A stretch of DNA of 64,000 nt, from the IMG/VR virus record IMGVR_UViG_3300008108_000036. One strand, given 5' to 3'. The notes under the pieces were generated by a model. The model did no database searches. It was not told where the DNA came from and saw only the letters and a program-made list of their open reading frames with translations. Positions 1,313-51,465 of this stretch are shown piece after piece. Numbering within the stretch: the stretch's first letter is position 1; each line of letters opens with the position of its first letter. The position numbers and the translations under genes are program-made. Source of the DNA: a virus.

Positions 1313-1672
1313 ATGAAATCTAAAGATCAACGACTATTGGAAGAAGCTTATGTTAAAATCAGTCTAGTTAAAGAAGAGACGGTTGATGATTTTAACTCAC
1401 GTATGATACAAAAAGAACTCGAACATCAACAAGATGATGTTGTTGATAAAGATGAAGTCGAAAGTGCTGAGGTTGATAAAGATGAGGAAGCATTTAAAGA
1501 TTCTTCTCATTCAGGTATTGATGAAGAAACAACTCAAATGTACTACAGTGCTTTAAAGAAGTTCGAGAACAATGAGATCACTTCTCAGCAATGGTATGAC
1601 ATATGTGCCAAGTTGCTTGGAGATCTTATGGAAAAGAACAAGGATGTCTTCATTCGTTTAAAGGACAGATAA
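1313..1672 (+). CDS. N-tagged acidic protein (MKSKDQRLLEEAY)
   Basis: N-tag; ATAAGTA at 1301-1307, 5 nt before ATG; no C-tag. Confidence 0.85.
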   Translation: MKSKDQRLLEEAYVKISLVKEETVDDFNSRMIQKELEHQQDDVVDKDEVESAEVDKDEEAFKDSSHSGIDEETTQMYYSALKKFENNEITSQQWYDICAKLLGDLMEKNKDVFIRLKDR

Positions 1673-1680
1673 AGAACCAT

Positions 1681-2322
1681 ATGAAGTCTAAAGATACGCA
1701 ATTACTAGAAGAAGCGTATGAAAAAACCATACTGTTAGAAACAGAGAAATGGGTTCGAGATTATCTCGAACAAGGAAGCAAAGGAGATTTAGATTTACAA
1801 AAATCTTATATTACCGAACTTCCAGAGAATCTTGTTGTTAACGGATCGTTAGATTTAAATTGTTGTAGCAAATTAAAAGCTCTTCCGAAAGGTTTAGTTG
1901 TTAAACATGATTTAGATCTATATGGTTGCGGCTTTATTGAAGAATTTCCTGCAGATGCAAAAGTTGGTGGAACAATAGATTTGAGAGGAACACGAATAAA
2001 AGTATTGCCTTCAAATCTTAATGTAGGAGGAAGTCTATACATTTCAAGATACACAAGACTTTCAGAGAACACCACCATTGCTCTTACACTTCACGTAGAC
2101 ACACCCTTTCTTAAAAAAGCTGAACCTCTTCCAAAAGGATTAAAGGTTCATGATTTATATTCTCCTCAGCTTGAATTAGAAGAGCTTCCAGATGACATAG
2201 AAGTAATAGATAGAGTAATGTCTCAAAAATTTTCAGAAGAAGAAGCAAAGAAATATATAGCTAGGAGAAACAAGGTAAGTAAAATAGAGAATAACCTACC
2301 GGAGATAAAAGGTTTGTTTTAA
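1681..2322 (+). CDS. N+C-tagged LRR-like repeat protein, paralog of 32517..33068
   Basis: true start likely ATG 1681 (MKSKDTQLLEEAY), not 1603; repeats LPxxLxVxGxLDL; ends NNLPEIKGLF*. Confidence 0.85.
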   Translation: MKSKDTQLLEEAYEKTILLETEKWVRDYLEQGSKGDLDLQKSYITELPENLVVNGSLDLNCCSKLKALPKGLVVKHDLDLYGCGFIEEFPADAKVGGTIDLRGTRIKVLPSNLNVGGSLYISRYTRLSENTTIALTLHVDTPFLKKAEPLPKGLKVHDLYSPQLELEELPDDIEVIDRVMSQKFSEEEAKKYIARRNKVSKIENNLPEIKGLF

Positions 2323-2823
2323 ATGAAAAACAAAGACCAACAACTTCTCGAAGAGGCATACGAACAAGTTCAAAAGCCTTCCCATGCAGAACGAAAAAAG
2401 ATGGTTAAGGATTTTTATAATCAGATTGAGCCTATTGCTAACTATCATTTTAGTTTCATTAAACCTCTTTCACCGGGAACAGAGATATGTTGGTTAAAGC
2501 CAATAGAAGAAGTGGGTGTTTGGACAATAAGCTCGAATGGAAAATGGATTAACTCTCGGACGTTTGAAAATTTACAAGCGTTTGAAAACCAAAACGGAAA
2601 ACTTGAAGAGGAATGGCGAAATATATTGTTTGTAAAGGGAGAATCGTTAGTGAATTGCTATAAGGATGGAAAAAACTATTCTGCACATTTAGGATATGAG
2701 GTAAATCCTACAAAAGAGTTTTATAAAGCATTACACAAGCCTATTGTATTTGATCACTATTATATAAAAGATAAATTTGAAAGAATAAAGAAAAAGCTTC
2801 CAGAGTTGGAAGGAGTATTTTAA
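2323..2823 (+). CDS. N+C-tagged protein, C-half related to 33072..33485
   Basis: MKNKDQQLLEEAY ... KKLPELEGVF*; abuts the previous stop (TAAATG). Confidence 0.85.
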   Translation: MKNKDQQLLEEAYEQVQKPSHAERKKMVKDFYNQIEPIANYHFSFIKPLSPGTEICWLKPIEEVGVWTISSNGKWINSRTFENLQAFENQNGKLEEEWRNILFVKGESLVNCYKDGKNYSAHLGYEVNPTKEFYKALHKPIVFDHYYIKDKFERIKKKLPELEGVF

Positions 2824-2958
2824 GTTAGCTGTGTGCATGCCTATAATCTAGGTTAAAGCCTTAGCTCTGCTGCAGCCATTCGGAATACTTTCATGTTATT
2901 AACTATATCCGCCAGTATAATAGTTGATTTCTACAGCAACTTGAAGTAGAGTCGACAA

Positions 2959-6956: not shown

Positions 6957-7607
6957 ATGAAATCTAAGGATCAACAATTATTAGAAGAAGCTTACGAAAG
7001 TATTTTTAAACAAACTAATTTAATAACAGAAGCAACTATTGCGTGGGACACTATACCTGTAAACAAATTGCTTGAAACCACAACACCAGAAGTTTTAGAA
7101 GAACTCTTTTCAGGAATAAAATCCATGGCTCAATCTGCATGGAATGGAGTTAAAAATGTTGGACAAGCTGTGGCCAACAAAGCTACTCAAACCGCAGGAG
7201 GTATTAAGGCAGCTGCTCAGCAAGTAGGTCAAAACGTTAAAAATATTTATAATACCGGAGAGCAGGAAAGTGCAGCAAAGCAAAAAACCGAACGTGCTGC
7301 TGAACTTGTTTCGCAAATTCAAAATGTAGTATCTGAGCTTATTAAAGCAAATCCCGTTATTGGTAAAGAATTTGAAGGCAAAGATCCAATGTCATTTACT
7401 TTAGGACAAATTCATAGTGCCCTTCAACGTGGGTTAGAATCTAAACAAAGATCCCAAAGAGCTGCTTCTTCTAAAGCAACACAAGCAAAACAAACAGGAA
7501 TTTTCGGTGGAGTAAAACAAGCTTTTAATACAGGCTCTTCATCTCCATCATCACCAGCTCCAGAATCAGGATCGTCCGTTGCTTCTCCAGCTTTAGCTTC
7601 TGCTTAA
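6957..7607 (+). CDS. N-tagged Ala/Gln-rich helical protein
   Basis: MKSKDQQLLEEAY..LITE; TATAAATA 6934-6941 and ATAAATA 6944-6950 upstream. Confidence 0.85.
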   Translation: MKSKDQQLLEEAYESIFKQTNLITEATIAWDTIPVNKLLETTTPEVLEELFSGIKSMAQSAWNGVKNVGQAVANKATQTAGGIKAAAQQVGQNVKNIYNTGEQESAAKQKTERAAELVSQIQNVVSELIKANPVIGKEFEGKDPMSFTLGQIHSALQRGLESKQRSQRAASSKATQAKQTGIFGGVKQAFNTGSSSPSSPAPESGSSVASPALASA

Positions 7608-8985: not shown

Positions 8986-9447
8986 ATGAAGTCCAAAGAT
9001 CAACAATTATTAGAAGAAGCGTATTATTCAATTTATCTTAAAGAAGGTATAACCGAAGATTGGTTTAAACAAGGTTCATTTAAAACCTACAAACAAGCTG
9101 CTCCAGAACCATTTGAGGTAGCTCAAGAAGATGGTACGTTACAAACTTTAGAAGGACCTCAACAATACAAAAAAGGGTTTTATATTATAACCGGACCTAA
9201 AGGAGAAAAGTATTCAATGCCTCCAGAAAAATTTCAAGAACTTAAAGATGATAATGGCGATGGAACAGCCACACCAAAAAAAATTGAGAAATTAGCTAAG
9301 CTAGCCGATTCATCCGGAACAGTTAAAACATCTTGGGGAGCAGAATTACAATATAAACCAGGAGAAGATTATATCGTTCGACATGGAGTAGGAGATTACG
9401 GAGTAGTTAAAAAAGATGTTTTTGATAAAACATATAAAGCACCATAA
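8986..9447 (+). CDS. N-tagged protein with PGDYG-like tandem domains
   Basis: MKSKDQQLLEEAY..YLKE; TLEG..G.YIITGPKGEKY and GDYGVVK.DVF.KTY. Confidence 0.8.
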   Translation: MKSKDQQLLEEAYYSIYLKEGITEDWFKQGSFKTYKQAAPEPFEVAQEDGTLQTLEGPQQYKKGFYIITGPKGEKYSMPPEKFQELKDDNGDGTATPKKIEKLAKLADSSGTVKTSWGAELQYKPGEDYIVRHGVGDYGVVKKDVFDKTYKAP

Positions 9448-10139: not shown

Positions 10140-10517
10140 ATGAAAACTTTTGATCAACTTCTTTTGGAACAAGCATATGAAACAGTAATTTTAAATGAAG
10201 ACCTGTCATCTAAATTGGATAAGCTACAATTAGCTTTAGATCTTGCAGGAATAGAACCGACGGTCGGAACAATTGCTGATGGAGCAAACACAATAATATC
10301 TTCTTTAAGAGCTGCTTCTGCATTAGCTTCAAAAAATAAAGACGAAGCAGCAGAACACGCAATTAATGCAGGCATTTCTATTATATCCATTATCCCTTTT
10401 GCTGATGTGGTGAAATTGCTAAAAGCTCGAAAGTTAAGGAAGCCTGCTCTTTATGCAGCAAAAGCAATAAAGCTTGCTGGTAAAACAGCCAAGGCTCAAA
10501 GAATGTCAAATTATTAA
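10140..10517 (+). CDS. N-tagged protein with pre-toxin (PT-TG)-like helical motif
   Basis: MKTFDQLLLEQAY..ILNE; LDLAGIEPTVGTIADGAN...AGISIISIIPFADVVK. Confidence 0.7.
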   Translation: MKTFDQLLLEQAYETVILNEDLSSKLDKLQLALDLAGIEPTVGTIADGANTIISSLRAASALASKNKDEAAEHAINAGISIISIIPFADVVKLLKARKLRKPALYAAKAIKLAGKTAKAQRMSNY

Positions 10518-10633: not shown

Positions 10634-10742
10634 TTGTTCGCGTGTTGAAAATTTATTAAATTAGCTAATTATAAGCATGTAGATGTAGCTTGTATTACTT
10701 TGGCAACCTAAAAGAGTTATTTCTTTGTTTTGTCAAAGCAAT

Positions 10743-13700
10743 ATGAAGGTAATTTCTAAAATTAACTTAACAATCACCTTTCTGATTGCTTTCTTTTTCT
10801 TTGCTTTTTTTGGTTATTCAGCCAATATGTATTGGACTGGAAATGCTGCTACTGCAAATGTAAACAATAATAGTAATTGGTCGCCGTATTATGGTAACGA
10901 CATAACAGCTGATATTTTTTACTCTGATGCTTCTATACAGTATGTAATGAATTTTAATGCAACAGCTAATTGGACATGGAATAGTATAACATTTAATTGC
11001 GACTCTAATTTTAGCATAAATTATAATGCTAACGTTGGAATTCTTGGTACCGCTGGAGGAGGCGTAATTGCTGCAGCACCAGGCTCTATTGTAAGAACTT
11101 ACTCTATTCTAGATGAATTTAGAGTAACTGCAAATCAAACTTGGGCAACTTCCAACCAATATTCTAAACTTGTTGTAACTCAAGCAAATGGCAATCTTGC
11201 ATTGGGGTCAAACGTGCTAACTTTAAATACTTTTAATAATACTAATTCCACCATTTTTATAGGTTCCGCCATTTCAGGTACTGGTTCAATTATTAAGACA
11301 GGAGGAGGAACAGCTACATTTAATGGTACAAATACGTATAACGGCACTACTACTATTAATGCTGGTACTCTTACTACAGGTGGAGCAAACAAACTTTCTG
11401 ATTCTTCTGACATTATTGTAAATTCTGGAGGCACTCTTACTCTTGGTGGAGCTGACACCGTTGGGATACTTTCAGGTTCTGGAGCAATCTCTATTGGCTC
11501 TAATACGATTACTGTTAGTTCTTCTAACAATGCTACGTTCTCAGGCAATATTACCGGAGCATCAGGAGGTTTTACTAAGTCTGGTACTGGTAATCAAACT
11601 CTTTCTGGCACTGGAAACTCTTGGAATGGAACAACAACGGTAAGCGGAGGAACTCTTCTTCTTTCTGGATCACTTACATCAAATGCTAGTGTCGCAGTGG
11701 GAAGTTCTTCTGGTGCTGTACTAACAATCACTGGCAACCTTAATCAAACAAAAACTGAAGGTGGTCCAAGAGCGTTTCAAATTGCTGCAAATACTGGTTG
11801 GAGCGGTACTGTAAATGTTGATGGAGGAGTTCTAAGAATCGGAACGGGAATGATGCTTGGAGACAACGGAGGCGGAAACGGAACGCTAAATATAACAAGT
11901 GGAACAGTAACAAATTCTGATTTTTGGTTTGCTGGTCCTAATAGCACTCTAACAGTCACAGGAGGAACTTATAATGGAACTGGAACCATTTTTATTGGTG
12001 GAGGAGGAGTTTCTGGATCAACATCAACAAGCAATCTAAACATAAGCGGCAATGGTTCTGTTGTTAGTACTAGAATAAGGTATGGAGACGGAGGAGCAAA
12101 TGCTACTACTATTGTTAACCTTGGAAATGGTTCTGCTGGAGGTTCTCTTTCTATAGCAGCAATGGATCACATTAACGGGTCGAACCACATAATAAACTTT
12201 AATGGAGGAACACTCGTTGCAAACGGGACATTCGGAATGCTTTCTCAAATAACAACTAATATTAAAACAGGAGGAGCAATATTTGATGTAAGCGGATCAA
12301 ATACACTTACTGTCAATAACAACTTATTAACAGATGGAACGGGAGGAGGGCTTACAAAAAACGGTTCGGGAACTCTTACTCTTTCTGGTAACAATACATT
12401 TACAGGAACAATTACTCTAAACAATGGAAGATTGAATATAAATTCTGCTACTGCTATTGGAAATGGAACACTTATTATTAACGGAGGTTCTTTGGATTCT
12501 TCTGGATCTAGCTCTGTGAATTTAACTACAAATAATGCTCAAAATTGGAACGCAGATTTTACTTTTGTGGGAACTAAAGATCTCAATATGGGTAGTGGAG
12601 TAGTTGCGATGAACGCAAATAGGACGGTAACCGTTAGTGGAGGAAATTTAACAATAGGAGGAGCAATTTCAGGAAGTGGATTTAATTTAACAAAAAACGG
12701 AACAGGGAGAATAATTTTAGAAGGAGCTAACTCTTATACTGGAATAACAACAATTAATTCGGGAGTTCTTCGTGTTTCAAACTCTTCAGGACTTGGTACT
12801 ACTACTGGAAATACGACAGTGATTAATGGTGCTGTGTTAGAGATTAGTGGAAACATTTCAATCGGAAATGAAGCCTTGGCTCTTTCTGGAACGGGAATTA
12901 GTTCCGGAGGAGCTCTCCGTAATGTTTCTGGCAATAATTCTTATGCAGGAGCAATAACGTTAGCAGCAACAACACGGATTAATTCTGATAGCGGAGACTT
13001 AATTTTAACTGGAGGAATTACAGGAAATCAAAGTATTGTATTTGGAGGAGCTGGTAATACAACTGTTTCTACAACTGCTATTACCAATGGTGTTGCAGGA
13101 CTAACAAAAGACGGAACAGGAACTTTGACAATTTCAAGTACTGGTAATACTTGGAACGGTCGTACAGAAATTCAAAACGGAGTTGTTAATTTAACTGGAA
13201 GTTTGACATTTAATGGCACGACGTTCCTAGCTGGACATTCATCGAGCAATTCCGTTTTAAACATCACAGGAACGTTAGCATTAACAAATACAGCTTCTAC
13301 AAACCGTCAATTTCAAATTGCACAAGGAGGCTCTCATGTTGGAGTAGTTAATGTTAGTGGATCTGGCAATTTAACTATTGCTAATGGATGGATGTTGGGA
13401 GAGAATGGTGGAGGAACCAGCACTTTAAATGTGTTGGGAGGTATTGTAAACAACGGAGGACAGACTTGGTTTTCGGGAGCCAACAGCACTCTTAATATTA
13501 GTGGAGGATTTTACAATTCGAGTGGAAAAGTTGTATATTTTGGTGGTGGGAGTGGAAATACTAACAGCACTATAACGGTAAGTGGTAGTGGTTATATGGA
13601 AGCTTCTACCATTCAATTTGGGGCGGGTGGTGCTGGAGCGATAACTACTATTAATCTTGGAAATGGATCAGTTGGAGGTAATCTTTCAGTAACGGGATTA

Positions 13701-15059
13701 GGGTATAGCAATGGTGCTCATACTATCAATTTCAATGGTGGCACATTAACTGCTAATAGTAATTTGTCTATGATAACTCAAGCAACAACCGTTGTAAAGT
13801 CTGGAGGAGCATTTATAAATGTTAACTCGGGATTTACGTTCACTATCAGCAACAATCTTACTACTGACGGTTCAGGTGGAGGTCTTACAAAAAACGGCAA
13901 CGGCACGTTAGTTATTTCTGGAGTTGGAAACAATTACACTGGAACTACTACAATCAATTCGGGTACACTAACCTTTGGTGCCAATCAAACTATCGGTTCT
14001 GTTGCTGGGATAGGAGGAACGTTAAACCTGTCTAGTTTTAATTTAGTATCAAACGCTTTGAGTAATACTACATTTTCTGGCAACATTATTGGTACAGGAT
14101 TTTTTACGAAAAATGGTAGCGGAACTCTTATTCTTTCTGGTAGCAACTCTTATTCTGGAGGAACGACAATCAAACAAGGAACCATTTCTATTGGACATGC
14201 AAACGGATTAGGAACTTCCGGTAATATTAGTTTTACAGGAGGAGCAATAAAATATGAAAATGGTATAGTTCAAGATTTTTCTTTAAGAATAAAAAACAGT
14301 TCTTCTGATGTTAATATAAACACTAATGGAGGCAATATAACATTTGCAAATAATTTAGACCAAACAAACAGTGGAGGATTAACAAAAAGCGGTAACGGCA
14401 CTTTAACTCTTTCTGGAAATAATTCTTACTCTGGAACAACAACAGTAAATGGCGGAACTCTTAAGGTTAATCATATTAAAGCTTTAGGAAATAGCACAAC
14501 CGTGAACGTTAATGGAGGAACTTTATTAGTTGGAATAGACGACTCAATTAATGGTGTGCAAATAACATTAAATGGAACAACCTCAGCATTTGCAACTTTG
14601 GCTTTTAATGGAAATTATAACGGAACAATTAATACATTAACTCTTCAAGCCGATTCCATACTTGATCTCGGAGCAGAGTCAGTAACAGCTATAATCAATT
14701 CTATTATTAATATAGATCAATATATTTTGAAAGTTTATAGTTGGACCGGTACAACTCTTTCAGAAGGAGGAAATGGAAATGATGTAGATCGTTTATTATT
14801 CGGTCGTTCATTAACTGCAGTAGAACTTAATAATCTCCGATTTTATGGAGACTCATTCGGAAACGATTTTCTCGGTTCTGGTTATGAGATTGGGTTTCAG
14901 AATGGTTTTGCTCACGTCATTCCTGTACCAGAACTAAAAACTTATGTTACGGGAATATTGCTTCTTGTTTTTGGAGCTGTTTGGTTGTTTCAAAAAAAAA
15001 GTTTTAAATTTTCTATCAGCCGAAACGTTTTTTTAAAACAAAAAAAAAAAAAATTATAG
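10743..15059 (+). CDS. autotransporter-associated beta-strand repeat protein with PEP-CTERM-like sorting signal (Verrucomicrobia type)
   Basis: signal peptide from ATG 10743; many LTKxGxGTLTLSGxNTYxGxTTxNxG repeats; ends VIPVPELKTY + TM helix + basic tail. Confidence 0.85.
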   Translation: MKVISKINLTITFLIAFFFFAFFGYSANMYWTGNAATANVNNNSNWSPYYGNDITADIFYSDASIQYVMNFNATANWTWNSITFNCDSNFSINYNANVGILGTAGGGVIAAAPGSIVRTYSILDEFRVTANQTWATSNQYSKLVVTQANGNLALGSNVLTLNTFNNTNSTIFIGSAISGTGSIIKTGGGTATFNGTNTYNGTTTINAGTLTTGGANKLSDSSDIIVNSGGTLTLGGADTVGILSGSGAISIGSNTITVSSSNNATFSGNITGASGGFTKSGTGNQTLSGTGNSWNGTTTVSGGTLLLSGSLTSNASVAVGSSSGAVLTITGNLNQTKTEGGPRAFQIAANTGWSGTVNVDGGVLRIGTGMMLGDNGGGNGTLNITSGTVTNSDFWFAGPNSTLTVTGGTYNGTGTIFIGGGGVSGSTSTSNLNISGNGSVVSTRIRYGDGGANATTIVNLGNGSAGGSLSIAAMDHINGSNHIINFNGGTLVANGTFGMLSQITTNIKTGGAIFDVSGSNTLTVNNNLLTDGTGGGLTKNGSGTLTLSGNNTFTGTITLNNGRLNINSATAIGNGTLIINGGSLDSSGSSSVNLTTNNAQNWNADFTFVGTKDLNMGSGVVAMNANRTVTVSGGNLTIGGAISGSGFNLTKNGTGRIILEGANSYTGITTINSGVLRVSNSSGLGTTTGNTTVINGAVLEISGNISIGNEALALSGTGISSGGALRNVSGNNSYAGAITLAATTRINSDSGDLILTGGITGNQSIVFGGAGNTTVSTTAITNGVAGLTKDGTGTLTISSTGNTWNGRTEIQNGVVNLTGSLTFNGTTFLAGHSSSNSVLNITGTLALTNTASTNRQFQIAQGGSHVGVVNVSGSGNLTIANGWMLGENGGGTSTLNVLGGIVNNGGQTWFSGANSTLNISGGFYNSSGKVVYFGGGSGNTNSTITVSGSGYMEASTIQFGAGGAGAITTINLGNGSVGGNLSVTGLGYSNGAHTINFNGGTLTANSNLSMITQATTVVKSGGAFINVNSGFTFTISNNLTTDGSGGGLTKNGNGTLVISGVGNNYTGTTTINSGTLTFGANQTIGSVAGIGGTLNLSSFNLVSNALSNTTFSGNIIGTGFFTKNGSGTLILSGSNSYSGGTTIKQGTISIGHANGLGTSGNISFTGGAIKYENGIVQDFSLRIKNSSSDVNINTNGGNITFANNLDQTNSGGLTKSGNGTLTLSGNNSYSGTTTVNGGTLKVNHIKALGNSTTVNVNGGTLLVGIDDSINGVQITLNGTTSAFATLAFNGNYNGTINTLTLQADSILDLGAESVTAIINSIINIDQYILKVYSWTGTTLSEGGNGNDVDRLLFGRSLTAVELNNLRFYGDSFGNDFLGSGYEIGFQNGFAHVIPVPELKTYVTGILLLVFGAVWLFQKKSFKFSISRNVFLKQKKKKL

Positions 15060-15181: not shown

Positions 15182-16666
15182 ATGCTACAGTCTATGCAAC
15201 CCTTTGAAAAACTTTTTAACGATACTTCTCTCGACATTCAACATGTAATAAATCAAAATATATCTGCGTTGCGAGCAAATAGCTCTCAATTAATTGCTTT
15301 AATTGACGAGCAACCCAAAGAAAATATAATAACGTTGCTCGTAATCGGTTGTATAGCAAAACAATTGAATAAACCAGAAGTAGTAGAGCTAGCTTTACAG
15401 AAATGCAAACATTTCAGCAATAATTATAAAGAAGACAATGTGAGAGTTACCCATGAAGAGTTAAATCTTTGGTTAACTCAAAAAGTTGAAGAACGGTCTA
15501 CAAAAGGTCAAAATCAAATTAAAGAAATTCAAATTCGACAGGCAACACTGCCGGTTCTTCAGCCAAAAGGAGACCAAAGTGATGTTGATGCCGTTGCGGA
15601 AGTTATTAAATCGGGTTGGTGGGGTAAAGGACCTAAAGTGGATCAATTAGAAAAAGAATTTGCACGATTAGTAGGAGCTAAATATGCTGTAGCCGTAACT
15701 AGTAATTCACATGGACAGGATTTAATAATGAAAGCATTAGGTATTAAAAATAGAGATGTTGTTAACCCAACAATATCGTTTATGGCTACAGCCATGATTC
15801 CCCTTTGGAATGATTGTACCACTAATGTTGTTGATGTCGATCCATATAGCATGAATATTGATCCCGCTGATGTCAGAAAACACTTAACCCCTAAATCTGA
15901 TGTACTAATAGCTGTAAACCATTCAGGGGTACCTGCTCCAATTGATGATATTAGAAAATTTTACGATGGATTTATCATTGAAGACTGTGCTCACAGCTGC
16001 TATACTCCAGGGGCTGGATTAAAGGGGGATGCTGCAGTTTGGTCGTTTCAAGCTGTAAAGACTATGCCAAGCGGCGATGGTGGAATGATAACCCTTAATG
16101 ACGAAAAATTATATAATAAGTTAAAAGAAATGACTTGGTTTGGAGTTTCATCTACATTTTCTAGAGTTAATAAAAACGATGGTGTGACTGGTAAACCAGG
16201 TTATACTTGGGATTATGAAGTAGATAAAGTAGGCTATAAATGTTATATGATTGATTTAACAGCTGCTTTATGTTTGTCGCAATTGAAAAAACTTCCAGCT
16301 ATGTTGGAATGGAGACGTCATATTCAAGCTCGTTATAATGCAGAACTATGTGAAGCTGTTACCAGACCACCTATTAGTAATACAGTTCAGCATTATTGCG
16401 CTAAGGTGCCATCCGAACAGAGATGCGACTTAATGGATTATTTGGCAGACAAGAAAATTCACACATCAGTTCATTATAAACCATTACATACATATGAAGT
16501 TATTCAAAAACACTTAACATATAAGGGTAGGTCTTATAATGTAGCTGATCAAGAATGGTTGAAATTATTATCCTTACCAGTTCACAACGCTATGAGCGAA
16601 GATGATATTGATTATGTTATTTTTTGGGTTAATAAATATTTTCAGGAAAAAAATACAAAATTATGA
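15182..16666 (+). CDS. DegT/DnrJ/EryC1/StrS PLP-dependent sugar aminotransferase with N-terminal extension
   Basis: IIEDCAHS, SFQAVKTMPSGDGGMI, LSLPVH. Confidence 0.9.
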   Translation: MLQSMQPFEKLFNDTSLDIQHVINQNISALRANSSQLIALIDEQPKENIITLLVIGCIAKQLNKPEVVELALQKCKHFSNNYKEDNVRVTHEELNLWLTQKVEERSTKGQNQIKEIQIRQATLPVLQPKGDQSDVDAVAEVIKSGWWGKGPKVDQLEKEFARLVGAKYAVAVTSNSHGQDLIMKALGIKNRDVVNPTISFMATAMIPLWNDCTTNVVDVDPYSMNIDPADVRKHLTPKSDVLIAVNHSGVPAPIDDIRKFYDGFIIEDCAHSCYTPGAGLKGDAAVWSFQAVKTMPSGDGGMITLNDEKLYNKLKEMTWFGVSSTFSRVNKNDGVTGKPGYTWDYEVDKVGYKCYMIDLTAALCLSQLKKLPAMLEWRRHIQARYNAELCEAVTRPPISNTVQHYCAKVPSEQRCDLMDYLADKKIHTSVHYKPLHTYEVIQKHLTYKGRSYNVADQEWLKLLSLPVHNAMSEDDIDYVIFWVNKYFQEKNTKL

Positions 16667-16904
16667 ACTGTGTTAATTTATTCGTTTTATTAATCTGCAA
16701 GTTTAAGACCTTATGCTGCTGGTTGTAGTCTAAGTTTACAATCAGTTAAGAAACCGCCTCCATTGTATGCTCACTACCAATTAACTCCTATTAATATACC
16801 AACAAGTAAGCTGAAAAATGCATATTTCGTGGCTTTAACTATTTTCTTTAAATTTGTTTAAACACAACAAAAAAGTAAATTTTAATTGTTAGTAAAAGCT
16901 CAAA

Positions 16905-17798
16905 TTACCAAATGTTATCTTGATTCATTCTATTATAAAACAATTCAGCATATAAGCTGCAATAAGCAGGAGCGAAATGGACCATGTCTCTAGCTCTCTC
17001 TATCTCCCAGCTTGTTAAATATTTATATTTATTATCGTTAAAAGTTCCAACAAAAGATTCAAAAGATAACGTACAAGCTTGATACATTTTTAAAAAGTTT
17101 GGATCCCAAGCTAATGTATAACATTTTATGTTATTTGCTTTACACACATTTTCTATAAACAATATATTTTTAATAAAATTATAATAGGAATTTGGCTCAT
17201 TAGCTAATCTATTATAAGCTTCCCAATCATCCTTATTGTGTTTGCAACCGTATTTAGCATATTCTTGCATTATGTTACTTCCAGAATTATCGATCATTTC
17301 ACGTCTAAATACATCAGGCAACAAGCAACATACAGCTAAAGGTTTATTGTTTAATAAGTAGTTATAGACAAGACGTGAAATCTTATCACTAGAAGCTCCG
17401 CTTATACCATAATTTTTTACTAATATTTTATTATCTGTTAGTTCTTTTAGTTTATAAGGCCAGGTATCTTCATATTTTAGTCCTACTCCAAATGTTTGAC
17501 TGCAACCAAAACAGGCTACTGTATTAGCAATTGAATTTGAGTTTAAGTCTTCTTCAGAATGACCTCTAAACATAGAATGATCAAAGCAATATGTTATAGA
17601 TGTAGCAGTATATCCAGGAGGGTTGTTTTTAATAAACGCTTCTTCACTATCTGTATATGCCCAATATACTGTATGTTTAAATCGATCGTGAAAATTAATT
17701 TTATTATTCCAATAATTTAAAGCTTCTTCATACTTGTTATCAGTATTAGCTAAAATCCAATCAGATGTTTTATCTAAAATTTTTTTAATAAAAGACAT
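16905..17798 (-). CDS. SGNH/GDSL-like hydrolase-fold protein
   Basis: FGCSQTFGVG, NYGISGAS, DMVH. Confidence 0.6.
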   Translation of the reverse strand: MSFIKKILDKTSDWILANTDNKYEEALNYWNNKINFHDRFKHTVYWAYTDSEEAFIKNNPPGYTATSITYCFDHSMFRGHSEEDLNSNSIANTVACFGCSQTFGVGLKYEDTWPYKLKELTDNKILVKNYGISGASSDKISRLVYNYLLNNKPLAVCCLLPDVFRREMIDNSGSNIMQEYAKYGCKHNKDDWEAYNRLANEPNSYYNFIKNILFIENVCKANNIKCYTLAWDPNFLKMYQACTLSFESFVGTFNDNKYKYLTSWEIERARDMVHFAPAYCSLYAELFYNRMNQDNIW

Positions 17799-23032: not shown

Positions 23033-23386
23033 ATGGAAACATATAATTTACAACTTAGCTGTCCTTCAATACTTTCCGCTCCTCAATTAGCTCAAATTTG
23101 GCTAAAAAATATTTTTAATTCTGGATTAAATCAAGCTTTGTTAAAACGCTATGGTTTGCAGCATAAAATAACCAACGACGACGAAAATGGTCCGGTGTTG
23201 GTTGTTTATAATATAAACGAGCAAGATTTTGATAAAATATCAAATTCGTTGTTGTTTAATATTTCGAAGCAAATATCTCCTTCCCAAATTCAACAATATA
23301 TTTCTGCAGAAGATATACAAATTGAAAAAAAGCGTAATTTTGATGAATTAATAAAGAAATTACCAGAATTGAAAGGGATATTTTAA
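23033..23386 (+). CDS. C-tagged hypothetical protein
   Basis: ends KKLPELKGIF*. Confidence 0.8.
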   Translation: METYNLQLSCPSILSAPQLAQIWLKNIFNSGLNQALLKRYGLQHKITNDDENGPVLVVYNINEQDFDKISNSLLFNISKQISPSQIQQYISAEDIQIEKKRNFDELIKKLPELKGIF

Positions 23387-29542: not shown

Positions 29543-29544
29543 AA

Positions 29545-35159: not shown

Positions 35160-35737
35160 AAACTAATGATCAAAAAAGCTTAGAACGACTTTACGAGCAA
35201 GTTACTAATAATGATTTTATGCTACTTAAAGAGGAAGACGTGTTGTTTGATGCAATAAGTTCTTTAATCACTAAAGAAGTTCAAAAAGTATTGAGAACCG
35301 TTGGAGATCTTAACGGTTATAGTCATTCCAGCTTGGGACAAATAGTACACAGTTTAAGTAATACTATTAATGCTAAAGACTTTGTCTGTAAGTATTTTCC
35401 TTCAGAAATTAAAGAACAAGCTGCTTTCGTTTATTTTGCGGGTATAATTTATTATATTGTAAGAAATAAAGTATTTCTTAAAAGATATTACGAACCGGAA
35501 GACATGTTGTGCTTCGAATTTGAAACTTCTGGTAGAGTCACAAATGTCAAGAGAAGAGTCGACGTTAAAGACAAAGAAAAGTTTAAACAATCTCTTAAGG
35601 AATGGTTTGTCAATCAATTAGAATTTATGTATGCGAGTTTTGCTCATGAATATCCAGAATGGGATAAATGGAGAGAAAATGAATTAAAATACGAGAAACT
35701 AAAGCAGAAGCATTCAGAACTAAAAGGAATTTTTTAA
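35156..35737 (+). CDS. N+C-tagged protein (12/12)
   Basis: MKTNDQKSLERLYE ... WDKWRE..QKHSELKGIF*. Confidence 0.85.
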   Translation: MKTNDQKSLERLYEQVTNNDFMLLKEEDVLFDAISSLITKEVQKVLRTVGDLNGYSHSSLGQIVHSLSNTINAKDFVCKYFPSEIKEQAAFVYFAGIIYYIVRNKVFLKRYYEPEDMLCFEFETSGRVTNVKRRVDVKDKEKFKQSLKEWFVNQLEFMYASFAHEYPEWDKWRENELKYEKLKQKHSELKGIF

Positions 35738-37088: not shown

Positions 37089-38045
37089 ATGAAAAGTAAT
37101 GTCCCCAGTAAAGCGGCTAAAAAAGTATTGTTGATTGGAAGTAACGGCTATATTGGAAGTTTTTTGCTGTCGTATTTGTCGGACAAATTTGATGTCAGTG
37201 GCATTGATTTGGGGTGGTTTAACTCTTTAACGACTAAAGAACAGCAGCTAGATTATAACACATTAAGTGAACAATTCATTCAAAGTTTTGATTCTATAAT
37301 TCTACTTGCTGGCCATTCAAGCGTAAAAATGTGTGAGAGAGACATGACAAGCTCGTTTAATAATAACATAAAAAACTTTCAAAATCTTCTCAACAAGATG
37401 AATTGCAGGCAAAAACTTATATATGCTAGTAGTTCAAGTGTGTATGGAATGGTTGGGACCTCGAGGGTATCTGAAGATTATTCTAGCTTTATTCCTCATA
37501 ATAATTACGATGTAACAAAGCATATTATAGACAGTTTAGCACAAAGATCTGAAATAGAATATTATGGTCTTCGTTTTGGAACAGTTAATGGATATTCTCC
37601 TAATACTCGAAGTGACGTAATGATAAATTCTATGGTTTATAGTGCTATGACAAACAATGAAATCAAATTATATATAAAAGATGTGATGAGGCCAATTTTA
37701 GGCTTAAATGATTTAAGTCGAGCAGTAGATGTTATTTTAGACAATTCAACAAACTTAAAAGGATTATACAATTTAGCTTCTTTTTCAAATACCGCAGAAA
37801 ACATTGCAAAAGAAGTTAGTCGAATTACGAAAGTTCCGATTACTCATTATACAAGCGATCCTAACAACATAAAAAACGCTAAATTAGAAACAAAATGTTA
37901 TAATTTCGATATTGATTGCACTAAGTTTAAAAATACGTTCAATTTCGCTTTTTATGATACGTTAGAAAGCTTAACCGAAAACTTAATACTTCGTTTTTCA
38001 AAAATAAATTTTAGTGATAGGAGTAGTAATAAAAAATATGAATAA
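37089..38045 (+). CDS. NAD-dependent nucleotide-sugar epimerase/dehydratase
   Basis: GSNGYIG, YASSSSVYG, YDVTK (YxxxK), LRFGTV.G. Confidence 0.9.
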   Translation: MKSNVPSKAAKKVLLIGSNGYIGSFLLSYLSDKFDVSGIDLGWFNSLTTKEQQLDYNTLSEQFIQSFDSIILLAGHSSVKMCERDMTSSFNNNIKNFQNLLNKMNCRQKLIYASSSSVYGMVGTSRVSEDYSSFIPHNNYDVTKHIIDSLAQRSEIEYYGLRFGTVNGYSPNTRSDVMINSMVYSAMTNNEIKLYIKDVMRPILGLNDLSRAVDVILDNSTNLKGLYNLASFSNTAENIAKEVSRITKVPITHYTSDPNNIKNAKLETKCYNFDIDCTKFKNTFNFAFYDTLESLTENLILRFSKINFSDRSSNKKYE

Positions 38046-39249
38046 CTTTAAGCTAATAACTAAATGTAGGTGTTGTGAAAACGATGTAGAGGAAATTTTA
38101 GATTTAACTGATCAACCATTAGCTAATTCCTATCATCCACTGCATGAAAAATTACATAAATTTCCTTTAAAATTAAATTTATGTAAATCATGTTTCCACA
38201 CACAATTAAGCGTAGTGGTTGATCCTAATGAAATGTTTAAGCACTATTTGTATGTCAGCGGAACGACACAAACTTTAAAAGAATACTTTGATTTTTTTGC
38301 TAAGTTTACAATCCATAGATTTAAAACTTTCTTCAACGTAAATGCGAAAACCGTGCTAGACATAGCATGTAATGATGGGACTCAATTACATTTTTATAAA
38401 AATAAAGGATTAGAAACTTTTGGAATTGATCCTGCTGAAAATCTGCATAATATAAGCAGTAAAGAACATAACGTTGTTTGCGATTATTTTCCTTCTAATA
38501 AACTAGACAGAAAATATAACATTATAATTGCACAAAACGTTTTTGCTCATACGCATACTATTTTCGAATTTTTAACGAAATGCTCTGAACTCATTGAAAA
38601 AAACGGATTAATTTACATCCAAACTTCTCAAGCAAATATGATAAAAAACAACGAGTTTGATACAATATATCACGAGCACTTGTCGTTTTTTAACTCTCTT
38701 TCAATGAAAACTATTGTAGAACGTTGCGGTCTCAAACTCAATAACGTTTTTAAATTTGACATACATGGAACGAGTTATGTATTTGAAATATCAAAACACA
38801 ATCTCAATTCGAATTTAGAATCTGTTCTTAAAGAAGAAGCTGAAAACGGTTTATATAATATAAAAACATATAGAGCATTTACTGAAAACGCGAAATCAAT
38901 AGCTGTAGAATTTAAAAAAACAATTGAGGAGCATAAAAATAACGGGTACGACGTTATTGGTTATGGAGCAGCAGCAAAAGGCATGACGTTCCTCAACTTT
39001 GCCCAAACTTATCTATATTATATTATAGATGATAATAAGTTAAAGCACGACCTATACTCTCCAGGAAGTGATACTATTATTAAAGGAATAGAAACTTTAG
39101 CTGCTAAAAACAAAGAACACAAAAAAATTCTTTTCGTTCCTCTAGCTTGGAATTTTTATACCGAAATTCGTGAAAGAATTAAAAAAGTTAGAAACAACGA
39201 AAACGATTTATTTTTAAAATATTTTCCAAAAGTGGAAGTATTAAAATAA
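38038..39249 (+). CDS. NDP-sugar C-methyltransferase (Zn-binding, SAM-dependent)
   Basis: CRCC..LDL.DQPLAN, C.SC.H.QL, DIACNDG, IYHEHLSFF, GYGAAAKG; start ATG 38038. Confidence 0.9.
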   Translation: MNNFKLITKCRCCENDVEEILDLTDQPLANSYHPLHEKLHKFPLKLNLCKSCFHTQLSVVVDPNEMFKHYLYVSGTTQTLKEYFDFFAKFTIHRFKTFFNVNAKTVLDIACNDGTQLHFYKNKGLETFGIDPAENLHNISSKEHNVVCDYFPSNKLDRKYNIIIAQNVFAHTHTIFEFLTKCSELIEKNGLIYIQTSQANMIKNNEFDTIYHEHLSFFNSLSMKTIVERCGLKLNNVFKFDIHGTSYVFEISKHNLNSNLESVLKEEAENGLYNIKTYRAFTENAKSIAVEFKKTIEEHKNNGYDVIGYGAAAKGMTFLNFAQTYLYYIIDDNKLKHDLYSPGSDTIIKGIETLAAKNKEHKKILFVPLAWNFYTEIRERIKKVRNNENDLFLKYFPKVEVLK

Positions 39250-39261
39250 CTCAATAGTTAA

Positions 39262-40011
39262 ATGAAAACTATTCTTAGCCATTTTTATAACGAAGAATAT
39301 CTCCTACCATTTTGGTTAAATCATCATAAAAAATTTTTTGATCACGGCATAATGATAAACTATCAATCTACAGATAAATCTGTAGAAATAATAAAAACTA
39401 TTTGCCCAACGTGGGAAATTCATGATAGTAGAAATAATTGCTTTGATGCAATAAAAGTTGATCGAGAAATAATAGTATATGAGAGATCGATACAAGGTTG
39501 GAGAATTTGTTTAAATACTACAGAATTTTTAGTTGGAGACTATACAACACTCGACAATTTATTAGATATGCAACAACAGCTAATAGTACCTGTGTATACA
39601 ATGGTAGACAAAAAGGAATTAACGAACGAAGAAGTTGTAATTAATGATTTGATTAGAGAGAAAACTTTCGGCCTTCCTAATCCTGAAGATTGGGGCAGAT
39701 CACTTCACAATTTTGTTATAGGGGGATATTCGCCCGGAAGACACTGGCTCTGGGGTTTTGAAGGGTGTCGTCGGACTGACAATTTTGTAATATTAAGATA
39801 TACGTATTCTCCTTGGAATAAGAGTTTTATTTCTAGAAAATTACAAATTGGAAATAAAATACCTGAGTCTGATAAAAAAGCAAGATTTGGTGTTCAACAT
39901 TTTTATTCCGAAGAAAAACATGCTGAAATTTTAGCAAATTTTCAAAAACGTTGTGTGGACTTGTCGATATTACCTATTTTAAATAATAAACAAATACGAG
40001 ACTTTTTTTAA
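39262..40011 (+). CDS. GT2-like glycosyltransferase
   Basis: HFYNEEYLLPFWL.HH..FDHGI, STD.S, LNTTEF, GRH. Confidence 0.75.
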   Translation: MKTILSHFYNEEYLLPFWLNHHKKFFDHGIMINYQSTDKSVEIIKTICPTWEIHDSRNNCFDAIKVDREIIVYERSIQGWRICLNTTEFLVGDYTTLDNLLDMQQQLIVPVYTMVDKKELTNEEVVINDLIREKTFGLPNPEDWGRSLHNFVIGGYSPGRHWLWGFEGCRRTDNFVILRYTYSPWNKSFISRKLQIGNKIPESDKKARFGVQHFYSEEKHAEILANFQKRCVDLSILPILNNKQIRDFF

Positions 40012-48943: not shown

Positions 48944-48963
48944 AAAACTATTTTACCACATTT

Positions 48964-49962
48964 TTAGTTCTGCTCAACATTTAACTCTTTGTGCTTTAAA
49001 GGATGTTCTAATAAAACTCTAGATACATAATCCGTTATACTTGAGTTATTTAGTTGTGCGTTAGTTTTAACAAAACAAATGAGAATATTATATAAGATTT
49101 GATCCATTTGAGTTCTATTAGCAAAAACGGATTGAGTGTGTGTAGATAATTGTGAAAAAGTTATCTTTTCATAAGGAGTCGAATTAAATTTTAAATTTAT
49201 TTTTAGATAATCAGGAATTATGTTGATGCTTATTCCCAACGAAAACTGAAAAATACTTTCTAATAATAAATCAACTTCGGAAATATGATGCATAACAAAC
49301 GAATTTAAAATATTAATGGTTGAGATTAAATTAGTTAGTGTTAGTATTTGTGTGTTGCTTACATCAGAAAATTCTCTAATCAGCCAACTATCCTCCAATT
49401 GTTCCGAGCAAATATAATCTTCTAACTCAGACGCATTTACATGGTTATAGTGGATTTCATGTTTAGATGCATACGATTTTAGATAATAAAACATAGAGCA
49501 ACAGCGGTCAAACGGTTCTCTGAAAATTAAAAATTTCTTTATAATTTTGTTGCGAATAAAAGGTTTAAGAAAAAACTGATGTTGCCTAAGTCCTAATGGC
49601 TCAACTACTATCCCAAGTAACATTAAATCTAGCAAAAACTGATCATCGATATATTTGAATTCTATTTTATAATTTGTACCTCCTATGTGTTGTAAAATCT
49701 GCTTGTTCATTGTTTGCATACGGCATTTGATATCAAGAATAGCAATCCTAAGTACTGTATTCGAGTTGTGAAGGACGGTTAACATCACCATCGAATTTTC
49801 ATTAAACTCTCTAGTTTCGTTTACTACGATTGATCTCCAATATCCTAATAAAACGTAAAACCAACTTAAAACATAAGTCCCGGCATTTTTAGGAATATGA
49901 TAGAATATAGGTAAATTAGGTGTAGGAATTTGACAATTTATCATTGATGTCCAACTTAACAA
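48964..49962 (-). CDS. sulfotransferase-fold protein
   Basis: FYHIPKNAGT (5'-PSB-like) and FREPFDR..SMFYYL (3'-PB-like). Confidence 0.7.
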   Translation of the reverse strand: MLSWTSMINCQIPTPNLPIFYHIPKNAGTYVLSWFYVLLGYWRSIVVNETREFNENSMVMLTVLHNSNTVLRIAILDIKCRMQTMNKQILQHIGGTNYKIEFKYIDDQFLLDLMLLGIVVEPLGLRQHQFFLKPFIRNKIIKKFLIFREPFDRCCSMFYYLKSYASKHEIHYNHVNASELEDYICSEQLEDSWLIREFSDVSNTQILTLTNLISTINILNSFVMHHISEVDLLLESIFQFSLGISINIIPDYLKINLKFNSTPYEKITFSQLSTHTQSVFANRTQMDQILYNILICFVKTNAQLNNSSITDYVSRVLLEHPLKHKELNVEQN

Positions 49963-49968
49963 TTTAAG

Positions 49969-51465
49969 TTAAAAAATTCCATCAAGTTCTGGAAGTTTTT
50001 CTCTTAATCCTCTAAACTGAATTTCTTCATCAATTTGTTCTTGAGTATATCCTTCGATGGTATATTTTGATGCTTTAGGCAAACCAGACAACGACTTTGG
50101 TTTTTTATGAACGTACAATTGTCCTAATATTGTTGTATTGCTACATTCGAATGAATCTAATTCAAACTTAACAATGACTTTATTTAAATTATCAGGAAGC
50201 CCTTTTAACGTTTTAAGTGTTGCTCCACAACTTTCGTTAAGAAATAAAGTAATATTAGAAGGACACCCATCTAATGTCTCTAATCGCAATAACCTTGAGT
50301 TGTCGGTAAGCATACTGTTGTATGTGCCAATTTCTAGTTCTTTTAAGTCGTGAAAAGTCTCTAGTCCTTTTAGGCTTTTAATTAATGGAGCTTTATATAA
50401 TTCTATCCTATCGACTTTTGTATTATTATCTGTTGAAAGAGATACAAGTTGATCTCCTTGAATATGAATTTTAGGAACAGATAATGGACAATTATTTAAA
50501 TTTGTTGCAACAGCATCATTGAACGAAAACACATAAGATTTTAGATGATACTCTCTAATTAAACTTCTGTCTTCGGGTTTGATAAAATTTAAGCTGTCAA
50601 AATCAATTGAGTTAGTTAAAACTTTTCGCTCTCCATCGGTTTTTAATTCGCCGCATATTTCAAGTAAGTCTTTTGCTGTGAGTTTGTCTAACGACAAAAG
50701 TTTATTAAAATTTTCAAATTTAGGTTTTATATTTACTTTTTCTGATTCTTTTTGTATTTTAGCATATGAGGCTTGAGTTAATTTAAAAAGTTTATTTACA
50801 AGAGCTAATGGCTTCTGTTCGATATTTAAATCTTGTTTATTATTTAGAAAAAATTTTAAACTAGGAAAAATTATTTGATATGGTGAGTAATCTTTAGTTA
50901 GTAGTTTTTTTGTTAAAGGATCGTTGTAACGTATAATAGAAAATTGATTAAATCCTTGTTTTTTTAAATTTGTATTACAATGGCTTTCAAAGGATACTTC
51001 TGAGTCAGTTCTAACAGCTAGCACTGTTATGATTTGAGGTTTATATTCCGCTGTCTTAAAACTAATTGGAGTTTCTAGCCATTTGAAATTGAAAGGCTCT
51101 TTTGTATAAATATCTTTAAGCGTTTTTTCAAGTTTGGGAAGCGTTTTATATTCTGTTGAAAATGCGGTAGACTTAAGCCTTAAATCATCAATCGAATCTT
51201 CTATGTTAACGTTATTTCGATATTTTAATGCAATTTCTTTCGTTTTATATGGTCCTCTTAAATACTTCTTTTTTGTTACGAATAATGTACCGTTTTCAAA
51301 TTCAATTAAATAGTCTCCAGCTCCGTAATATTTAGATCTGTAGCCAACAACTTGACCCAATTGCCCTCCATAGCTTCCATATCCCTTTATAATCCAATCC
51401 CCAATAGCAAATTTCGAATTCTTTGGAATTGGTGACGCGTAAAAATTTTTATTTAAGACTCTCAC
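49969..51465 (-). CDS. C-tagged protein: KOW-like N-domain plus LRR-like C-domain
   Basis: N-domain shared with 22249; SLKGL repeats; ends EKLPELDGIF*. Confidence 0.8.
   Translation of the reverse strand: MRVLNKNFYASPIPKNSKFAIGDWIIKGYGSYGGQLGQVVGYRSKYYGAGDYLIEFENGTLFVTKKKYLRGPYKTKEIALKYRNNVNIEDSIDDLRLKSTAFSTEYKTLPKLEKTLKDIYTKEPFNFKWLETPISFKTAEYKPQIITVLAVRTDSEVSFESHCNTNLKKQGFNQFSIIRYNDPLTKKLLTKDYSPYQIIFPSLKFFLNNKQDLNIEQKPLALVNKLFKLTQASYAKIQKESEKVNIKPKFENFNKLLSLDKLTAKDLLEICGELKTDGERKVLTNSIDFDSLNFIKPEDRSLIREYHLKSYVFSFNDAVATNLNNCPLSVPKIHIQGDQLVSLSTDNNTKVDRIELYKAPLIKSLKGLETFHDLKELEIGTYNSMLTDNSRLLRLETLDGCPSNITLFLNESCGATLKTLKGLPDNLNKVIVKFELDSFECSNTTILGQLYVHKKPKSLSGLPKASKYTIEGYTQEQIDEEIQFRGLREKLPELDGIF

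Follow-up and report, generated by a model that had tools for sequence, protein, structure and literature searches.

Bacteriophage T4 loads a handful of internal proteins into its head, of which IPI, at least, serves as a weapon against restriction. In herpesviruses the C-terminal tail of the scaffold binds the capsid protein as a docking element and is released by assemblin, and in encapsulins a short C-terminal cargo-loading peptide, carried by unrelated cargo proteins, is recognized on the inside of a shell with the HK97 fold. The T4 internal proteins are highly diverse, and their capsid targeting sequence (CTS) is the sole part conserved among them (PMC3012670). Residues 4 and 7 of the CTS are needed for targeting and residues 8 and 10 for processing (PMC9026906), and its removal from IPI, IPII, IPIII and Alt by the prohead protease gp21 is attributed in later articles to Mullaney and Black (1996, cited in PMC9026906 and PMC5694885; see also PMC3012670). 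The gp21 sites in Alt are ITE-6 and LTE-619, a site LIE-9 is predicted in gp21 itself, and C-terminal processing of this type has been described for Alt (at LTE-619) and for gp21 (PMC5694885, PMC9026906). The polyvalent proteins of phages and conjugative elements are long, multi-module polypeptides, predicted to be packaged in the head, co-delivered with the DNA and partly processed by proteases; they are defined by enzyme domains (MuF, metallopeptidase, ART, ParB and others) without a uniform junction motif (Iyer, Burroughs, Anand, de Souza and Aravind, 2017, PMC5512222).

Here we have analyzed a stretch of 64 kb (referred to as the window) of an uncultured freshwater T4-like myophage. Its six-frame translation gave 18 ORFs with a shared N-terminal peptide (N-tag, MKSKDQQLLEEAY) and 17 with a shared C-terminal one (C-tag), present separately or together (Table 1), exactly the counts and the combinatorial use reported in a first-pass annotation. 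The N-tag was found at the ORF start in every carrier and comes in two subtypes, DQQLLEEAY and DQK.LELLYE. The C-tag ended 0–1 residue ahead of the stop codon in every window carrier and was longer than previously annotated, i.e., a 16–17-residue module end K-Φ-x-x-L-x-x-K-LPEL-x-G-Φ-F (Φ, hydrophobic), with a conserved K at −16, [FYVIL] at −15 and [LIM] at −12 before K-LPEL-x-G-Φ-F. A loose N-tag pattern had 14 matches versus 0.54 in residue shuffles of all ORF segments, and the C-tag pattern 15 versus 0.005.

Table 1. Tagged genes of the window (positions in nucleotides; a slash separates alternative starts).
Position	Strand	Tags	Features
1313..1672	+	N	MKSKDQRLLEEAY; acidic protein, 119 aa
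1681..2322	+	N and C	LRR-like middle; paralog of 32517-33068
2323..2823	+	N and C	MKNKDQQLLEEAY ... KLPELEGVF; 166 aa
6372..6899	-	N	Late-promoter-like ATAAATA box immediately upstream
6957..7607	+	N	Upstream ATAAATA box; tail coiled, Ser/Ala-rich
8986..9447	+	N	PGDYG domain (PF14083, Pfam E 3.5e-8)
10140..10517	+	N	MKTFDQLLLEQAY; 125 aa
22249..23028	+	C	N-terminal domain common to 49969-51465 and to polyprotein modules of relatives
23033..23386	+	C	Homologous to internal modules of polyproteins P0013, P0019 and P0020
28952..35737	+	C (12/12), N (11/12)	Array of 12 abutting cistrons (next 12 lines)
28952/28955-29542	+	N and C	Same BLASTP group as 33529 and 35156; W.EWR
29545-30156	+	N and C	Same BLASTP group as 31899
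30157-30684	+	N and C	
30681-31301	+	N and C	
31302-31898	+	N and C	
31899-32516	+	N and C	Same BLASTP group as 29545
32517-33068	+	N and C	Paralog of 1681..2322
33072-33485	+	C	
33529-34128	+	N and C	Same BLASTP group as 28952 and 35156; W.EWR
34183/34192-34812	+	N and C	
34809-35159	+	N and C	
35156-35737	+	N and C	Same BLASTP group as 28952 and 33529; W.EWR
49969..51465	-	C	498 aa; N-terminal domain like 22249, followed by LRR-like repeats; upstream ATAAATA box

The array cistrons lie in different reading frames and are therefore separate genes and not a polyprotein made by read-through. The T4 late promoter is TATAAATA, and ATAAATA boxes are located 5–15 nt upstream of the tagged genes 6372-, 6957, 33529 and 49969-, which we count in support of their probable late expression.

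The third codon positions within the tags vary freely (Pro CCA/CCG/CCT/CCC, Leu CTT/CTA/TTA/TTG, Gly GGA/GGT/GGG), indicating that selection acts on the peptide and not on a DNA repeat, as had been proposed. The mean pairwise identity was 54% in the N-tag and 54% in the C-tag versus 23% in the middles, a figure that, judged without a control, we read as about the level of globally aligned unrelated sequences. Once the tags were trimmed, the 22 proteins fell by BLASTP into 17 unrelated groups with folds from all-helical to LRR-like and PGDYG, so that the diversity claimed for the middles holds. Among the fold labels given to them before, only PGDYG was confirmed (by Pfam); “KOW-like” and “PT-TG-like” have no Pfam support. 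Seven array genes carry a W.EWR motif ahead of the C-tag. No Pfam or PHROG match to MuF, MPTase peptidase, ART or DdrB-ParB-type domains was found in the tagged proteins of the window.

The first-pass annotation knew of no described family with this architecture, but the N-tag has a probable counterpart in the CTS and gp21 processing of the hypervariable T4 internal proteins (PMC3012670, PMC9026906). T4 IPII and IPIII begin with MKTYQEFIAE↓A (the arrow marks the known or candidate cut), T4 gp22 with MLKEQLIAEAQ and the window N-tag with MKSKDQQLLEE↓A. The alignment to the CTS retains M-K-[ST], Q, two hydrophobic residues and E↓A, and with ca. 11 residues and one gap it is too short for statistics. 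A hydrophobic-x-Glu sequence (LEE↓A, AYE↓ or LLYE↓S) lies inside the first 16 residues of nearly all N-tag carriers. Like the CTS, the N-tag is a short peptide at the start Met, common to otherwise unrelated proteins (18 ORFs) that are small and fast-evolving, with a hydrophobic-x-Glu site and a resemblance to the gp22 N-terminus. Unlike the CTS, it has two subtypes and has not kept the targeting residue Tyr4, and it is found on 18 carriers in 64 kb versus ca. 4 in T4. We consider that the N-tag resembles a known kind of signal. It is widespread across related uncultured phages, its DNA pattern matching 42 IMG/VR stretches.

Two of these stretches, G001 and G002, contain both gp21 and gp23. 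G001 is a complete relative in IMG/VR (217 kb, with direct terminal repeats) that has homologues of ca. 35 window ORFs, with up to 87% amino acid identity. Its gp21 matches Peptidase_S77 (E 3.7e-26), its gp23 was identified with E 1.7e-89, and between these two genes there is one coding for a gp22-like coiled-coil protein, seen in G001 only. The C-tag is absent from G001, and since this genome is complete the T4-type head machinery does not need the C-tag. T4-type head genes were not found in the 10 kb past the right end of the window, nor in the C-tag-bearing contig G003.

For the C-tag, a profile built on the C-terminal 40 aa matched, among others, proteins of 300–1215 aa with 2–9 internal copies, and in this first set of matches the residue after the tag was Glu in 75 cases versus a stop in 38. 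An exhaustive search of 1.84 billion representatives found the C-tag in only 70 clusters. There, 59 copies were terminal and 52 internal, and Glu came directly after 49 of the internal ones; about one in ten terminal copies had one or two extra residues after the F. The polyproteins, found in relatives only, are made of modules mostly of 108–215 aa (8–9 of them in P0012; P0013, P0015, P0020 and others are also multi-module) and have no Pfam domains on record. Some modules are homologous to window genes, those of P0032 to 30157-30684 (E 1e-23 and 8e-40) and others to 23033, 22249 and 30681, and the same modules appear in relatives in varying order, single or fused. The N-tag was never found on polyprotein modules. 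The portability and independence attributed to the two tags are borne out, the N-tag being found without the C-tag in 42 IMG/VR stretches and in G001, and the C-tag without the N-tag in other relatives, on single genes and polyproteins alike; in several C-tag-only proteins no N-terminal signal was recognizable.

In the AlphaFold2 model of P0015 (residues 1–360) there are two separately folded modules (mean pLDDT per 10-residue block up to 95). The pLDDT is 68–79 over the helical half of the C-tag and below 50 at the junction residues 207–215 (KGVFEQKTS), i.e., the joint is predicted to be a disordered linker. In sequence, an internal C-tag with its Glu gives Φ-F-E↓, the motif of the T4 prohead protease. 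The C-tag is not simply the second sorting signal first proposed; in the relatives it is a joint between polyprotein modules with a putative cut site of prohead-protease type, and it is the new part of the system, the N-tag not being new in kind. C-terminal sorting of the sortase (LPXTG) or PEP-CTERM type was discarded, since LPEL-x-G is followed only by Φ-F and then by a stop or Glu, with no membrane span or basic tail.

We think it reasonably probable that the tagged genes of the window code for capsid-internal, ejected cargo proteins that would be packaged, cleaved and delivered to the host. The N-tag would be this lineage's version of the T4 CTS, a short N-terminal propeptide that would bring the protein into the prohead by co-assembly with its gp22 scaffolding core and would then be cut off by a gp21-type protease after a hydrophobic-x-Glu site (the candidate cuts are LLYE↓S for genes of the array, and LEE↓A or AYE↓ for those standing alone). 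The C-tag would be a conserved module end, with its first half an amphipathic helix packed on its own module and its second half, LPEL-x-G-Φ-F, an exposed tail. In the polyproteins of relatives this tail plus Glu (G-I-F-E↓S) would form a prohead-protease site in a flexible linker, so that one gene could yield up to ca. 9 separate proteins, while in the window modules of this kind are encoded by separate cistrons that are coupled in translation and carry an N-tag of their own. The best reading is one cargo repertoire with two encodings, as CTS-tagged cistrons or as protease-cuttable polyproteins.

The window C-tags stop at F without a following Glu, so that the proposed cut site is absent there, and their conservation over 16–17 residues goes beyond what the known T4 gp21 sites, with their short hydrophobic-x-Glu motif, require. 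Since natural C-termini need no cut after F and yet keep the full tag by selection on the peptide, the C-tag probably has a further role, for example docking to the core or shell or serving as a protease exosite. More tentatively, it might be a second, independent capsid-loading label with its own prohead receptor (shell, core or protease exosite), in the manner of the herpesvirus scaffold tail or of encapsulin cargo peptides; loading would then take two keys, and modules could pass easily from single tagged genes to protease-cut polyproteins and back, so that dozens of proteins would be injected. Encapsulin cargo peptides illustrate a possible way in which the C-tag could work, a comparison of mechanism only, with no likeness in sequence. 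The C-tag resembles the C-terminal processing of T4 Alt and gp21 in being a C-terminal segment of a presumed head-internal protein that would be handled by a Glu-directed maturation protease, but it differs from these sites in lacking a cut-site Glu at its natural C-termini, and from them and the herpesvirus tail in that one 16–17-residue motif marks the ends of dozens of modules without mutual relationship and doubles as a joint within polyproteins. Nothing in T4 corresponds to the C-tag, and packaging, known in T4, is presumed for the window phage from sequence. Like polyvalent proteins (PMC5512222), the relatives have many unrelated modules per polypeptide, although in the window the modules are separate genes. 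Unlike them, the C-tag modules belong to no Pfam family, share one fixed joint motif and are also found as single tagged genes.

It seems unlikely that the C-tag docks instead to a hub outside the capsid (a phage or host protein, for instance RNA polymerase, a sliding clamp or a PDZ-like protein that reads a C-terminal Phe), with polyprotein processing only exposing it and the tagged proteins acting as intracellular effectors and not as virion cargo. Such a hub would suit a short, conserved, aromatic-ended tail on unrelated proteins (some without N-tag), which lies at their free C-terminus or close to it, has a predicted exposed and flexible structure and is conserved far above the needs of a minimal protease site. 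However, the C-tag is paired with a CTS-like N-tag in 11 array genes and two others, and Glu follows nearly all internal copies; to our knowledge, T4-like phages have no Glu-specific protease other than that of the T4-type head. The terminal copies that extend past F do not fit a strict reader of the free carboxylate, and no candidate hub gene was found. We give still less credit to the N-tag being a leader for a modifying enzyme (e.g., radical-SAM) or for another sorting route. The likeness to the CTS is short, and there is a radical-SAM-like gene (Pfam 25.7 bits, below cut-off) among the C-tag genes of the relative L073, but this gene adjoins C-tag and not N-tag genes, and no homologue of it turned up in the window, G001, G003 or the other loci examined, whereas the N-tag is found in genomes with the T4 head module and has the hydrophobic-x-Glu within the first 16 residues of its carriers.

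The chances are slim that the conserved ends act mainly as DNA, as junction homology for cassette shuffling with an embedded ribosome-binding site for the next cistron. In the array the codons for E-G-V or K-G do give GAAGGAG or AAAGGA 7–9 nt before the next start, an extra residue is present in three C-tags, precisely the ones whose stop codon overlaps the next start as ATGA or GTGA, and the differing order and fusion of modules in relatives indicate that shuffling at joints does happen. Nevertheless, synonymous positions within the tag vary freely, its silent sites being no more conserved than others. The C-tag is also kept just as well in genes without a following one (2323, 23033, 33529, 35156 and 49969-) and inside polyproteins, which have no use for a ribosome-binding site at their joints. 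Finally, a single paralog family with the two motifs as halves of one shared fold, to which W.EWR in seven array genes and the five array genes in BLASTP groups might point, is hardly credible and was rejected, being contradicted by the 17 unrelated groups with all-helical, LRR-like and PGDYG folds and by the independent distribution of the tags, each widely found without the other and the N-tag never on polyprotein modules.

If these proteins are indeed capsid cargo, viral-fraction proteomes should contain peptides that end in ...GIFE and others that start after ...LYE↓, and the natural tags and linkers could be used for packing foreign proteins in T4-type capsids. In such a modular grammar, an address at the N-terminus, a module end at the C-terminus and joints that the protease can cut would permit the exchange of unrelated modules between single genes and polyproteins. 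There would be a large and easily recognized pool of proteins of unknown fold that are candidates for injected effectors or for anti-defence. Abundant freshwater T4-like phages would load several times more internal proteins than T4. In the window phage, a very large protein cargo is probably packed into the capsid.

Six-frame translation of the window bears out the tag counts and the combinatorial use proposed in the first-pass annotation (Table). The N-terminal peptide (N-tag), MK(S/T/N)KDQxLLE(E/L)(A/L)Y or a diverged variant, begins 18 ORFs, and the C-terminal peptide (C-tag), KLPE(L/I)xG(I/V/L)F, closes 17, none or one residue ahead of the stop. Against 14 and 15 observed matches to the N-tag and C-tag patterns, respectively, shuffled-residue versions of those ORF segments gave 0.54 and 0.005. 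Third codon positions are free to vary in both tags, indicating that the peptide and not the DNA is conserved, and the 22 tagged proteins, once trimmed of their tags, fell into 17 unrelated groups by BLASTP. The earlier claims of selection on the peptide rather than on a DNA repeat, and of middles from unrelated classes, therefore stand. The C-tag motif was correct as annotated but too short, since its full consensus, K-[FYVIL]-x-x-[LIM]-x-x-K-L-P-E-[LI]-x-G-[IVL]-F, extends further toward the N-terminus. The N-tag has two subtypes, DQQLLEEAY in scattered genes and DQK.LELLYE in the array of 12 abutting cistrons. Adjacent genes of this array are in different frames, which rules out stop-codon read-through and makes the cistrons separate.

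The window has a G+C content of ca. 30% and codes for a T4-type RNA ligase 1, ThyX and many sugar-modifying enzymes. Among GenBank phages blastn found no match to 7.3 kb of it, and its close relatives all come from lake or other freshwater metagenomes. About 35 of its ORFs have homologues (amino-acid identity up to 87%) in G001, a 217-kb IMG/VR genome that is complete and has direct terminal repeats. In G001 the gene of a T4 gp21 prohead protease (Peptidase_S77, E 3.7e-26) is adjoined by a gp22-like coiled-coil scaffold gene and, likewise beside it, the gp23 major capsid gene (E 1.7e-89). From these head genes and the many homologues, the lineage of the window is judged to be that of a T4-type myophage, the window phage's own head genes not being among the genes seen. 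We did not find gp21 in the C-tag-bearing contig G003, nor gp23 in G003, G006, G008 or G009, and none of the 4313 matches to the major capsid protein could be traced to the contigs of 173 kb and 149 kb. The 10 kb past the right end of the window had no head genes and carried glycosyltransferases, a beta-helix protein and, in a single contig, a ClpB-like gene.

In the T4 record, the internal proteins IPII and IPIII start with MKTYQEFIAE|A, IPI with MKTFKEF...ITE|A and the gp22 scaffold with MLKEQLIAEAQ. Aligned with one gap, MKSKDQQLLEE|A of the window has M-K-[ST], a Gln, two hydrophobic residues and Glu-Ala in common with the T4 capsid targeting sequence (CTS). An Asp at the T4 cut site prevents processing and leaves targeting intact. 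The first ten residues of IPIII suffice for loading foreign proteins into the head, and in the CTS targeting depends on residues 4 and 7 while cleavage is directed by residues 8 and 10 (PMC9026906). T-even internal proteins are highly diverse, the CTS alone being conserved (PMC3012670), and gp21 sites, known or predicted, include ITE-6 and LTE-619 of Alt as well as LIE-9 of gp21 (PMC5694885, PMC9026906). The DNA pattern of the N-tag was found in 42 IMG/VR stretches, including G001 and a second relative, G002, both with gp21 and gp23. We conclude from these sequence comparisons that the N-tag probably belongs to the known T4 CTS kind, greatly expanded in the 64-kb window as compared with G001, which has only two carriers; in the literature the CTS/gp21 system covers this tag. 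An ATAAATA box just upstream of four tagged genes resembles the T4 late promoter, TATAAATA. Across the window this box has 46 matches versus 48 expected, overall no more than chance, and about 14 copies lie ca. 5–35 nt upstream of same-strand starts, placed as T4-type late promoters would be. A Lys-rich protein of G001, ca. 3.4 kb from gp23 of the gp21-gp22-gp23 module, has an N-terminus with three N-tag-like units, FKDTQTLSGLYEGI, SKDQLIEQA and SKDQDMLAEAYNVI, and TLSTIEEAF lies close to the start of the gp22-like scaffold of this genome. The N-tag may be a copy of a core-protein segment. One methyltransferase of the window starts with MKTLDQIAIE, which closely resembles the T4 CTS; this enzyme may likewise be packaged, or the likeness may be due to chance.

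A C-tag profile built on the last 40 residues and searched against longer proteins retrieved proteins of 300–1215 residues with 2–9 internal copies, in independent JGI, ENA, NCBI and Logan assemblies. Among 1.84 billion representatives, searched exhaustively with HMMER, only 70 C-tag clusters were found, indicating a rare and lineage-restricted system; these clusters hold 59 terminal and 52 internal copies. The next residue was Glu in 49 of the internal copies, and in the first hit set Glu followed the tag 75 times versus 38 stops, so that the sequence of the joint is ...K-L-P-E-L-x-G-I-F-E|S.... Its final hydrophobic-Phe-Glu agrees with the T4 protease motif, and its end also matches SIFES within T4 gp22 and LLYE|S of the array-type N-tag. 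The modules between joints are mostly of 108–215 residues, the size of the single genes of the window, and several are homologous to these outside the tag. Both modules of polyprotein P0032 match 30157-30684 (E 1e-23 and 8e-40), and others match 23033, the N-domain of 22249 and 30681. For residues 1–360 of polyprotein P0015 AlphaFold2 predicted two modules that fold independently; in this model the helical C-tag half packs on its own module (pLDDT 68–79), and residues 207–215 (KGVFEQKTS) are disordered. Foldseek gave no PDB match to the two-module polyprotein model at E <= 0.001, and its module B was ferredoxin-like only vaguely. Some polyproteins and proteins with only the C-tag have a possible second T4-like start, M-x-[ST]-[FY]-[NQ]..Y (MSTFNKEY, MLSFESTY, METYN and MKKYN are examples); it is not universal, and its recurrence in several sequences is suggestive.

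The N-tag is on none of the polyproteins, a locus of a relative (L073) has six consecutive single genes with the C-tag and without the N-tag, and profile searches gave no C-tag match in complete G001 or in G002, G004, G005, G008 and G009. This makes the tags genuinely independent of each other, as the first reading had it. A purely DNA-level feature, such as a ribosome-binding site in the E-G-V codons or homology for recombination, would explain some codon choices in the array, but it fails for tags that have no gene after them and within the polyproteins. A single paralog family of one fold, with the N- and C-motifs as its two halves, is contradicted by this independent distribution and by middles that are unrelated. 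Considered as a tag-modifying partner, a radical-SAM-like gene that L073 has amid its C-tag genes was rejected: its score falls short of the Pfam cut-off, and neither the window nor G001, G003 or any other locus examined has it. L073, which carries C-tag polyproteins, also has a ribosomal protein S21 homologue.

Islands of sugar-modifying genes alternate with the tag arrays, and near-identical contigs past the right end of the window add GT25, GT92, a sulfotransferase and a beta-helix protein. A large protein with PATR repeats, unusual for a phage, may be a fibre or adhesin.

Table. Positions of tagged genes and other features (window coordinates unless stated)
Feature	Position	Strand	Remarks
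N-tag only	1313, 6372 (-), 6957, 8986, 10140		six-frame translation
C-tag only	22249, 23033, 33072, 49969 (-)		six-frame translation
Both tags	1681, 2323 and 11 of the 12 array genes		six-frame translation
Array	28952-35737	+	
PGDYG domain	8986-9447		sole Pfam recognition among tagged proteins
Gene with both tags	33529-34128		AlphaFold2 mean pLDDT 66.6
ATAAATA near starts	e.g. 5800, 20036, 25006, 42306 (-), 52304 (-), 52730 (-), 59714		
Methyltransferase	24247-24912	+	Methyltransf_24
PATR-repeat protein	10725-15059	+	1444 aa; 8 passenger-associated transport repeats of autotransporters, Pfam E 3.8e-47
Sugar islands	15182-20722, 23735-27937, 37089-40011, 53425-55422, 59714-63688		DegT aminotransferase, NAD epimerase, C-methyltransferase, RgpF-like, GT2, GT61, STELLO-like, DUF5672
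Three tandem paralogs	61519-63688	-	233-254 aa; start MK[IV][YC]TY..D[IL][RG]F[EDH]; no Pfam family; one homologous region in G001, near 133 kb
Two small paralogs	142-381, 954-1235	+	MS[LI]YIDEE.SLQE.Y...; either side of gene 378-947; match one and the same G001 region
Lys-rich protein	L057 (locus of G001) 2111-2668 = G001 102111-102668	-	185 aa
Radical-SAM-like protein	L073 913-2313		466 aa; amid C-tag genes
S21 homologue	L073 6334-6525		

In the open-access literature on T4-like phages we found no uniform C-terminal module-end motif and no protease-punctuated cargo polyproteins described; what comes closest to the C-tag and the polyproteins is the C-terminal processing of Alt in T4 and the concept of packaged polyvalent proteins (PMC5512222). 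Selection at the peptide level maintains all 16–17 residues of the C-tag at natural C-termini, which need no cut after Phe; the known T4 gp21 sites are short, hydrophobic-x-Glu only. The tag's retention there and its length make a docking role plausible, the putative partner being the core, the shell, the protease or a hub outside the capsid, but the analysis turned up no such partner. The interpretation of the first-pass annotation, portable signals on cargo packaged in the virion and delivered to the host, is in part supported. We propose one pool of small modules encoded in two ways, in the window as individual cistrons coupled in translation, every one bearing its CTS-like N-tag, and in the relatives as polyproteins with a putative prohead-protease site at the joints. 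Judging from the sequences and models, the tagged modules of either form would likely be incorporated into the prohead core, then trimmed by a gp21-type protease and, last, ejected along with the DNA.
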